From Escherichia coli (GTDB lineage: Bacteria > Pseudomonadota > Gammaproteobacteria > Enterobacterales > Enterobacteriaceae), in the NCBI RefSeq assembly GCF_003334305.1, contig NZ_QOWS01000041.1: a stretch of 15,676 nucleotides of DNA, one strand, 5' to 3'. Both the position numbers and the translations under genes were made by a program. Within the stretch, counting starts at the first letter, position 1. Each line of letters begins with the position of its first letter. This document shows, piece after piece, positions 5,847 to 6,793 of the stretch. The notes under the pieces are model-generated. The model ran no database searches, was not told where the DNA came from, and saw nothing but the letters and a program-made list of their open reading frames with translations.

Positions 5847-6793
5847 TACAGACCGACCTCCGTGAAGAAGTGATGACGATCCGCCATCACCATGCGCGAG
5901 CGTTTATGTGGGAAGTCGAACTCTTTAATTGTCCGGTATCCCGCAGGCTCAAGATGGCGGAACAGGCGCTGGTTATCGATGCGTGGCTCCAGTACTGTGC
6001 GCTGCGTACGTGGCTCATTCAGCAGCAGGTAATGTGTCACCCCGCGCAGCCAGCTTTGCACATAGTGGGCTCCGCGCCATTGCTGTTCACCAACCAGCAG
6101 ATGCAGGCCACGGTCAAAGGGCTGCCACGAATAGTGGCGACCAATGCGGTCTTCCGCCGCCCAGTAGATTTCGAAATAACTGAACGGCCGATCGTCGAAA
6201 CAACCAATCAGCGGGAATGCATGTTTACTGGTGAGCTGGCGTTCCAGATAGGCGATCTGTACCTCCAGTGAGCCACTTTGCTCCCAGAAATACTCAACGC
6301 GCGGATCGTTCATCCAGCGAGTGAAACGTTCTGCATCAGAAACGGGATCGGCAATGCGGAAACTCAGCATCCTGCGAATGCGTGGATCGTAACGACGATA
6401 AACTTCACCCTGCGGACGGGGGGGGCGCTGCGGGAAATAAATCTCACGCTCTGCATCAAAAACCATTTCACCGGAGGCCCGGTTTGCCGGAGAACTCAGC
6501 CATAACGGTAACTGCCAGAAAGCGGAACGATGGATAATGTCGCTTTGTACCTGTCCGAAAAGCGTCAGCGCCTGTGGCTCCTCACACCATTCGGACCAGG
6601 GAAGAACCACTGCTGAAAGTTGTGGTGCGGCGATAAATATCTGATCCAGCGCGTCGCACAGCCACCCTGTTGGCAGCTCCCCGGGCCAGTGCAACACCGC
6701 GCTATTGTCCAGCCCCCAGCCAAGATTCAGAGGCTTGTCGAGTTTTTCACAGCGCAGTCCATATCCGCTGTGAACAATGTTTGCCCCAGACAT
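5846..6793 (-). CDS. iucB: N6-hydroxylysine O-acetyltransferase
   Basis: 315-aa ORF in operon position 2. Its start codon directly abuts the iucA stop (TGAATG). Confidence 0.92.
   Translation of the reverse strand: MSGANIVHSGYGLRCEKLDKPLNLGWGLDNSAVLHWPGELPTGWLCDALDQIFIAAPQLSAVVLPWSEWCEEPQALTLFGQVQSDIIHRSAFWQLPLWLSSPANRASGEMVFDAEREIYFPQRPPRPQGEVYRRYDPRIRRMLSFRIADPVSDAERFTRWMNDPRVEYFWEQSGSLEVQIAYLERQLTSKHAFPLIGCFDDRPFSYFEIYWAAEDRIGRHYSWQPFDRGLHLLVGEQQWRGAHYVQSWLRGVTHYLLLNEPRTQRTVLEPRIDNQRLFRHLEPAGYRTIKEFDFPHKRSRMVMADRHHFFTEVGL

Follow-up and report, generated by a model that had tools for sequence, protein, structure and literature searches.

In Klebsiella, the genes rmpA and rmpA2 carry poly-G tracts. 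On the virulence plasmids of Klebsiella pneumoniae, a poly-T run lies in the promoter of the rmp locus (PMC13274134). The likeness to the case described here is that the homopolymer belongs to a virulence determinant which lies on a plasmid next to iuc, and that length variants lead to a discordance of genotype and phenotype in gene-presence typing. The simple-sequence contingency loci of Neisseria, Haemophilus, Campylobacter and Bordetella pertussis, whose homopolymeric tracts undergo phase variation through slipped-strand mispairing, as far as they are outlined in the sources cited, resemble iucB by a G/C homopolymer within the open reading frame, where a change of ±1 puts the gene out of frame (PMC1891110, PMC5084427). 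Like these loci, iucB shows length polymorphism among isolates, recurring on different backgrounds. For the homopolymeric tract in glpK of M. tuberculosis, it was reportedly shown by experiment that reversible frameshifts cause heritable drug tolerance (bioRxiv 10.1101/717272). In so far as that report describes it, this tract is likewise a short cytosine run inside the coding sequence of a metabolic gene, with frameshifts in clinical isolates and no classical surface antigen involved.

The tract considered in the following is a run of eight cytosines in iucB of the aerobactin operon. Aerobactin is a major virulence-associated siderophore, and ColV plasmids, as well as the virulence potential of ExPEC and APEC, are commonly called from genomes by the presence of iuc. 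The stretch of DNA analysed, 15,676 bases in total, is referred to as the window, and it comprises the following features:

547..8518, minus strand: operon iucA-iucB-iucC-iucD-iutA (open reading frame list and PGAP annotation of near-identical loci)
6794-8518, minus strand: iucA (open reading frame list, PGAP)
5846..6793, minus strand: iucB, N6-hydroxylysine O-acetyltransferase, 315 aa, intact (translation of the open reading frame, tblastn with 100% identity to annotated iucB, near-identical loci as annotated by PGAP)
4104-5846, minus strand: iucC (open reading frame list, PGAP)
2830-4107, minus strand: iucD (open reading frame list, PGAP)
547-2748, minus strand: iutA (open reading frame list, PGAP)
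5844..5848, minus strand: overlap of the iucB stop and the iucC start, TAATG (junction sequence)
6418..6425, minus strand: slippage-prone C8 homopolymer, nt 369-376 of iucB (read directly, with C5-C10 variants in public assemblies)
6416..6427, minus strand: codons 123-126, CGC CCC CCC CGT, Arg-Pro-Pro-Arg (codon alignment with other iuc alleles)

The explanation which we regard as likely is that the tract represents an incidental, lineage-specific slippage hotspot that yields heritable iucB-null alleles, and at the same time a hotspot of long-read errors. Accordingly worded as a mechanism, the conserved R-P-P-R-P is encoded in ColV-type iucB with CCC instead of CCA or CCG for the first proline, which fuses CGC-CCC-CCC-CGT into eight cytosines, and the C8 run would be an incidental by-product of codon choice. 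As a hotspot of replication slippage, a mechanism that we infer, it would recurrently gain or lose bases, mostly by +1. The frame thereby shifts at codon ~125, and translation stops at 128-143 aa, ahead of the GNAT catalytic domain. The outcome would be heritable iucB-null and presumably aerobactin-negative alleles, estimated at roughly 1-4% of sequenced ColV-type iucB, while assemblies based on long reads only under-call C8 and thus inflate the counts of C7 and C6.

The tract and its surroundings in the window

The open reading frame in the window showed 100% identity over all 315 aa to proteins annotated as IucB (tblastn). It occupies the iucB position in the iuc operon, and the PGAP-annotated loci are more than 99.6% identical to the window. 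The operon is neighboured by an MFS transporter gene and sitABCD. G8 on the plus strand at 6418-6425 corresponds to C8 on the coding minus strand, as read directly from the sequence, so that the position inside the iucB coding sequence given by an earlier sequence-only reading is confirmed. Across the tract the coding strand reads CAG CGC CCC CCC CGT CCG, i.e. Q-R-P-P-R-P. The assignment of the run to Pro-Pro-Arg-Pro in that reading was right in substance, the exact extent being Pro124 and Pro125 in full, with the final base of Arg123 before them and the initial base of Arg126 after them. Position 6422 is the third base of Pro124 and comprises the synonymous site which makes or breaks the run. 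In the window the tract has the length of C8, and iucB is in frame.

No other homopolymer of at least 8 bases occurs in the window. Based on a first-order Markov model, 0.29 G/C runs of this length are expected per window (P ~0.25), and the tract is therefore unremarkable by composition. In 150 kb of essential-gene-rich K-12 sequence, no G/C run of at least 8 was found compared to ~2.7 expected; such runs seem to be avoided in actual coding sequence of E. coli.

Further observations concern the rest of the window. The iucD gene, with its 3' end at 2830-2900 next to the gap at 2749-2829, encodes 425 aa (...WRSGT*), compared to 445 aa (...WRSGSRKKPQPEAAALTHYTTNIQE*) in CFT073, and the short end arises from substitutions creating a TAG and from an A run that differs by 1 nt. 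PGAP labelled iucD as 'frameshifted' in all ColV-type records examined, including those with an intact iucB. An origin of this label from the tract was considered and rejected, since it reflects the 425-aa plasmid-type C-terminus. Another length-variable homopolymer lies outside genes, in the intergenic region downstream of iutA at 391-396, where the window comprises T6 and 12 of the 13 comparison loci covering it comprise T7; only pC5101 from strain C51 agrees with the window.

At 10227-11382 the window contains crcB and, of eno, just the 3' part, adjoining a Tn3 transposase fragment, while in ColBM-type plasmids (L023, L025) the unit of fluoride riboswitch, pyrophosphatase, usp, eno and crcB is complete. 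Rfam gave no RNA family and no riboswitch in the window, and its crcB appears to be cut off from its fluoride riboswitch. Positions 1..15672 align end to end with a segment of pEC22-OXA-1 (NZ_CP084902.1 150800-166600) that has an IS1 copy on each side, and the size of the window matches the contigs of ~15.4-15.6 kb at which short-read assemblies break. The window is probably an IS1-bounded sit-iuc module.

Lineage specificity of the run and consequence of a length change

Of 5,426 complete E. coli genomes, 1,843 carry the region, in ~1,870 records. These fall into two allele groups, a mostly plasmid-borne one with at least 99% identity and a mostly chromosomal one with ~96%. All homologues examined retained the motif F-P-x-R-P-P-R-P-x-G-E-V-Y, including the one of Cronobacter with a protein identity as low as 65%. 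In the codon alignment, the first proline codon was CCC only in the ColV-type allele, which is also found in the SMS-3-5 chromosome. The codon was CCA in CFT073-type E. coli and CCG in E. hormaechei and Cronobacter; of three K. pneumoniae alleles, two showed CCA and one CCG. A single silent third-position change thus makes or destroys the C8 run. In the comparison among iucB homologues, which the sequence-only reading had proposed as a check of tract length, the uninterrupted C8 is lineage-specific and not conserved outside the ColV-type allele.

This observation bears on the possibility that the tract is an evolved contingency locus, in which C8 would be maintained for reversible slipped-strand on/off switching of aerobactin. 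A benefit could lie in non-producing 'cheats' which keep the IutA receptor, or in the cost saved when iron is available. The conservation that a contingency locus would be expected to show was not found, because all other iuc lineages examined interrupt the run with a synonymous A or G while RPPRP is retained. The synonymous interruption thus gives no sign of a selection for mutability.

The placement of the tract within the gene, on the other side, would suit a complete switch. The positions concerned are as follows:

5912..6349, minus strand: GNAT acyltransferase domain, Acetyltransf_8 (PF13523), residues 149-294 (Pfam scan, E=5.6e-53)
6405..6407, minus strand: TGA stop in the C9/C6 frame, products of 129 aa and 128 aa (in-silico tract edits)
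6364..6366, minus strand: TGA stop in the C7/C10 frame, products of 142 aa and 143 aa (in-silico tract edits)

The GNAT domain lies entirely downstream of the tract and is missing from every frameshift allele. The PDB homologues SidF, MbtK, Rv1347c, BH2621 and DfoC align from residues ~110-150 to ~305, with ~110/134-310 given for the first four. Any change of ±1 or ±2 ends IucB at 128-143 aa, ahead of this domain, and the C7/C10 and C9/C6 products are alike in comprising none of it, as a frame-switching placement upstream of the catalytic domain implies. Judged from the loss of the domain, the frameshift alleles presumably lose aerobactin synthesis. Because of the TAATG overlap between the end of iucB and the beginning of iucC, an iucB ending ~520-560 nt early may also remove translational coupling and lower the expression of iucC-iucD-iutA.

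In the C7/C10 frame, the early TGA and the codon of the in-frame Met142 (6368-6370) overlap, the coding strand at 6364-6370 reading ATGCTGA, which resembles a termination-reinitiation arrangement. In C7/C10 contigs, gene callers predict a downstream open reading frame of 174 aa with the whole Pfam GNAT domain, and in C9/C6 alleles the called downstream frame comprises 202-203 aa. As a minor caveat, a separately translated putative GNAT fragment could provide a low-level rescue.

Length variants, sequencing errors and rival explanations

Queries of 72-74 nt that differed in tract length only were used for the complete genomes, where an identity of at least 99% denotes a perfect match at the respective length. 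C8 was found in 839 records, C7 in 21, C9 in 11 (one strain deposited twice) and other tract forms in ~9. Consequently, ~3.7% of the ~880 records with the C8-type allele differ by ±1, and their iucB is 'frameshifted' according to PGAP. The chromosomal CFT073-type iucB pseudogene of FDAARGOS_944 (NZ_CP065613.1) was rejected as a tract variant, since its frameshift originates from an 11-bp deletion ~75 nt upstream of the tract site, i.e. an inactivation independent of the homopolymer.

As an error baseline, the G7 run in the essential gene ispU/uppS was chosen (codon 196 of 254, K-12 NC_000913.3 195488-195494), where a real frameshift should be lethal. Since no G/C 8-mer occurred in the K-12 essential-gene search, a 7-mer had to serve, and the baseline understates the error rate of an 8-mer. 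It was miscalled in 48 of 5,272 assemblies (0.9%), 45 times as G6 and three times as G8, corresponding to a ratio of deletions to insertions of 15:1. The G6 in 45 'complete' assemblies is a marker of residual homopolymer errors in finished genomes. The RefSeq CFT073 assembly used for comparison (NZ_CP051263.1 205487-205558) carries it as well.

The ispU G6 was also present in three of the 21 strains with iucB-C7 (C51, APEC37, 774), compared to ~0.2 expected (Fisher P=6e-4). Further C7 strains share accession series with ispU-error genomes, namely CRE389 (with CRE444 and CRE78), 447 and 572 (with 446 and 605) and ETEC4091 (with ETEC1702). An identical deletion in iucC, C4 to C3 at window 4485 ('GAGTT[C]CCCGAAATGG'), was shared by the C7 plasmids of CRE389 and ECKH-505 (Taiwan) and of C51 and APEC37 (Russia), four plasmids in all and of two unrelated origins. 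Two of these assemblies also carry the lethal ispU frameshift, and C51 additionally shows a C6 to C5 change. The deletion leads PGAP to call a frameshift in iucC and looks like a basecalling or assembly error that is systematic and specific to the sequence context; together with the second change in C51, it indicates that C runs are systematically under-called.

The plasmid pEC22-OXA-1 of EC20 comprises C8 and an intact iucB, and over 15.6 kb a single mismatch separates it from three 'C7' plasmids of 169 kb from Taiwan. Due to the accession series with lethal ispU G6 and the C8 in the near-identical EC20 plasmid, the Taiwanese C7 was rejected as an inherited real allele. Altogether, the ispU co-errors, the iucC deletion and the EC20 sequence show that C7 in long-read 'complete' genomes is heavily contaminated by artefacts. 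The sequence-only reading had named the tract a likely sequencing-error hotspot, and this claim is borne out by the lethal ispU G6 in three of 21 C7 strains, the shared accession series and the recurrent iucC deletion.

The C9 plasmids gave a different picture. None of the seven examined showed another homopolymer indel across 11-15 kb, and C9 was found on at least five SNP haplotypes. Two of these are common to different countries and groups, TUM18780 (Japan) with WCHEC025985 (China), and 181.1 (Canada) with 47-1826 (USA). The TUM/WCHEC lineage has a 41-bp deletion, and half of a 90-nt query over its junction is an IS1 end with thousands of matches. Insertions at the tract were 23-fold enriched over the ispU G7 baseline (P=9e-8), and C7, C8 and C9 were all seen on a near-identical plasmid backbone. 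In the C9 plasmid pF247-1 (NZ_OY754408.1), IS1 takes the place of the iucC end and of all of iucD-iutA, which is consistent with a further decay of an aerobactin locus that would already have been inactivated.

The truncated proteins predicted for each tract length were looked up by exact match in a collection of 15 billion proteins (NCBI, ENA, Logan; mostly short-read). The counts refer to index blocks and not to samples:

C5: 314 aa, in frame with one Pro deleted, 15 contigs, 25 blocks
C6: 128 aa, 188 contigs, 245 blocks
C7: 142 aa, 348 contigs, 456 blocks
C8, window allele (I272): 315 aa, at least 1000 contigs, 14,504 blocks
C8, commoner allele (T272): 315 aa, 27,962 blocks
C9: 129 aa, 780 contigs, 976 blocks
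C10: 143 aa, 30 contigs, 31 blocks

The two C8 alleles differ at window 5979 (iucB codon 272), with Ile272 (ATC) in the window and Thr272 (ACC) in the commoner form. The 316-aa product of C11 was absent from the collection. Compared to a full-length ColV-type total of ~42,500 blocks from the two main alleles, ~3.9% of the blocks are out of frame (C9 ~2.2%, C7 ~1.0%, C6 ~0.55%); these percentages are rough upper estimates, since minor full-length alleles are absent from the denominator. The DNA of every sampled locus showed the expected tract length.

Each tract length was found on both the I272 and the T272 background, and C9 and C7 additionally on E109K, N259D, D215N and R202L, from which it follows that the length changes are recurrent events. 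Most C9 and C10 blocks are contigs of 10-20 kb, the size at which short-read assemblies break the IS1-flanked segment. Contigs without any other indel amounted to 6 of 6 sampled for C9, 6 of 6 for C10, 8 of 10 for C7, 4 of 8 for C6 and 3 of 6 for C5, the extra indels in C6 and C5 being mostly 1-nt homopolymer deletions. Clean short contigs for C9 and C10 next to mixed ones for C7, C6 and C5 indicate that the expansions are real, and that the contractions are part real and part artefact. For C7, C6 and C5, the division into real and artefactual alleles would be approximate only.

The CFT073-type full-length protein was found in 22,043 blocks, and none of the four possible ±1 products of its interrupted CCC-A-CCCC occurred in the collection. 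One synonymous base, CCC compared to CCA, thus separates ~1,700 out-of-frame blocks from none. The sequence-only reading had assumed a tract prone to slipped-strand mispairing, which agrees with the existence of C5, C6, C7, C9 and C10 on several backgrounds and with their absence for the interrupted allele. Its counter-case, a tract invariant at 8, does not hold, as alleles from C5 to C10 exist.

That all tract-length differences in the databases are errors of homopolymer sequencing or assembly and the tract itself is biologically invariant appears highly improbable to us. This assumption could draw on the ispU G7 miscalled in 0.9% of 'complete' assemblies, on the lethal ispU error in three of 21 C7 strains with several more from the same accession series, on the iucC deletion repeated in unrelated C7 assemblies and on the further indels in one half of the C6 and C5 contigs sampled. 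Moreover, a length-dependent error would also give zero for the interrupted allele. However, the baseline errors are deletions by 15:1, whereas +1 is the commonest variant (976 compared to 456 blocks) and insertions are enriched 23-fold. In addition, C9 and C10 lie overwhelmingly in contigs of short-read size (10-20 kb), of which 12 of 12 sampled had no other indel, and independent laboratories in Japan and China, and in Canada and the USA, reported identical C9 haplotypes.

The prevalence of C9, the commonest variant, could also speak for another explanation, in which CCC-CCC-C would be used as a recoding site for +1 ribosomal frameshifting or transcriptional slippage, so that C9 would still make wild-type IucB, or C8 a second product. 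For E. coli, CCC-C has been documented as a motif prone to +1 slippage, with frameshifting of up to ~1% at the most shift-prone position (PMC4519876), and a +1 slip within the C9 mRNA run would, as derived from the sequence, restore the exact wild-type R-P-P-R-P. Nevertheless, the wild-type iucB is read in one frame and needs no frameshift, the motif is absent from other iuc lineages, and the out-of-frame tails comprise 4 and 17 residues before the stop. Neither a stimulatory element nor a conserved alternative-frame reading frame, as known for programmed frameshifts, was found in iucB. The reported efficiencies are low and highest at codon 2 instead of codon 124 (PMC4519876). A recoding function has very little probability in our view. 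As a minor caveat, ribosomal frameshifting could give a low-level rescue of C9.

The evolved contingency locus introduced above finds support in the same variants, i.e. the spectrum from C5 to C10, recurring on at least six backgrounds at the protein level and on at least five SNP haplotypes as expected for independent length polymorphism, and the near-identical plasmid backbones which bear C7, C8 and C9. C10 alleles indicate that slippage goes on after C9, and other pathogens have switches based on homopolymers in coding regions, such as the glpK tract of M. tuberculosis. The C10, the in-frame C5 and the three lengths on one near-identical backbone would point to a continuing slippage, but a true switch would produce the same. 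On the opposite side stand the interruption in every other iuc lineage examined, the ~96% of alleles in frame and the C9 unchanged in plasmids across countries, which fits a stable loss. A reversion was not observed. Furthermore, E. coli is proficient in mismatch repair, and phase variation based on slippage is rare in this species. An evolved contingency locus is thus considered unlikely. The more specific form, in which C8 would be a reversible switch seeding non-producers that keep IutA, with a C9 OFF state that is leaky by +1 ribosomal slippage and readily reverts to C8, is judged quite unlikely.

Of the aerobactin on/off switch suggested by the sequence-only reading, the off direction is real, as ±1 removes the whole GNAT domain; the unconserved tract, the predominance of in-frame alleles and the unchanged C9 speak against the remainder. 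The persistence of C9 without change in plasmids from different countries looks like a stable loss rather than rapid switching, and the incidental hotspot proposed at the beginning remains the preferred explanation.

Meaning and comparison with known systems

The main value of the iucB tract is practical and lies in the discordance of genotype and phenotype in aerobactin and ColV typing, and in false pseudogene calls. If ~1-4% of ColV-type iucB are out of frame at one 8-base site, typing by gene presence overcalls aerobactin producers, and assemblies from long reads only overcall iucB pseudogenes at the C8 site. The CCC and CCA alleles of iucB are also a natural illustration of how one silent substitution alters mutational robustness, and the pair would provide a simple engineered control for measuring slippage or phase variation at iucB. 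In the literature searched, whose coverage was incomplete, no description of this site was found, neither as a frameshift of iucB nor as a tract or phase variation.

Compared to the contingency loci, the iucB tract comprises just 8 nt, occurs in a species proficient in mismatch repair, lacks conservation among orthologues and is ON in ~96% of the alleles, while its OFF alleles look clonally stable. In the case of glpK, experiments demonstrated both reversibility and a phenotype open to selection, as far as the report describes them; for iucB, both would be hypothetical. The rmp locus concerns another gene and another species, and the Klebsiella iucB alleles examined are interrupted by CCA or CCG and do not contain the hotspot. 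Finally, iucB CCC-CCC-C holds the frameshift-prone CCC-C motif (tRNA-Pro, m1G37, EF-P; PMC4519876) twice and likewise encodes Pro-Pro; the difference is that the motif causes an error of translation there, whereas in iucB the length of the DNA itself is changed.
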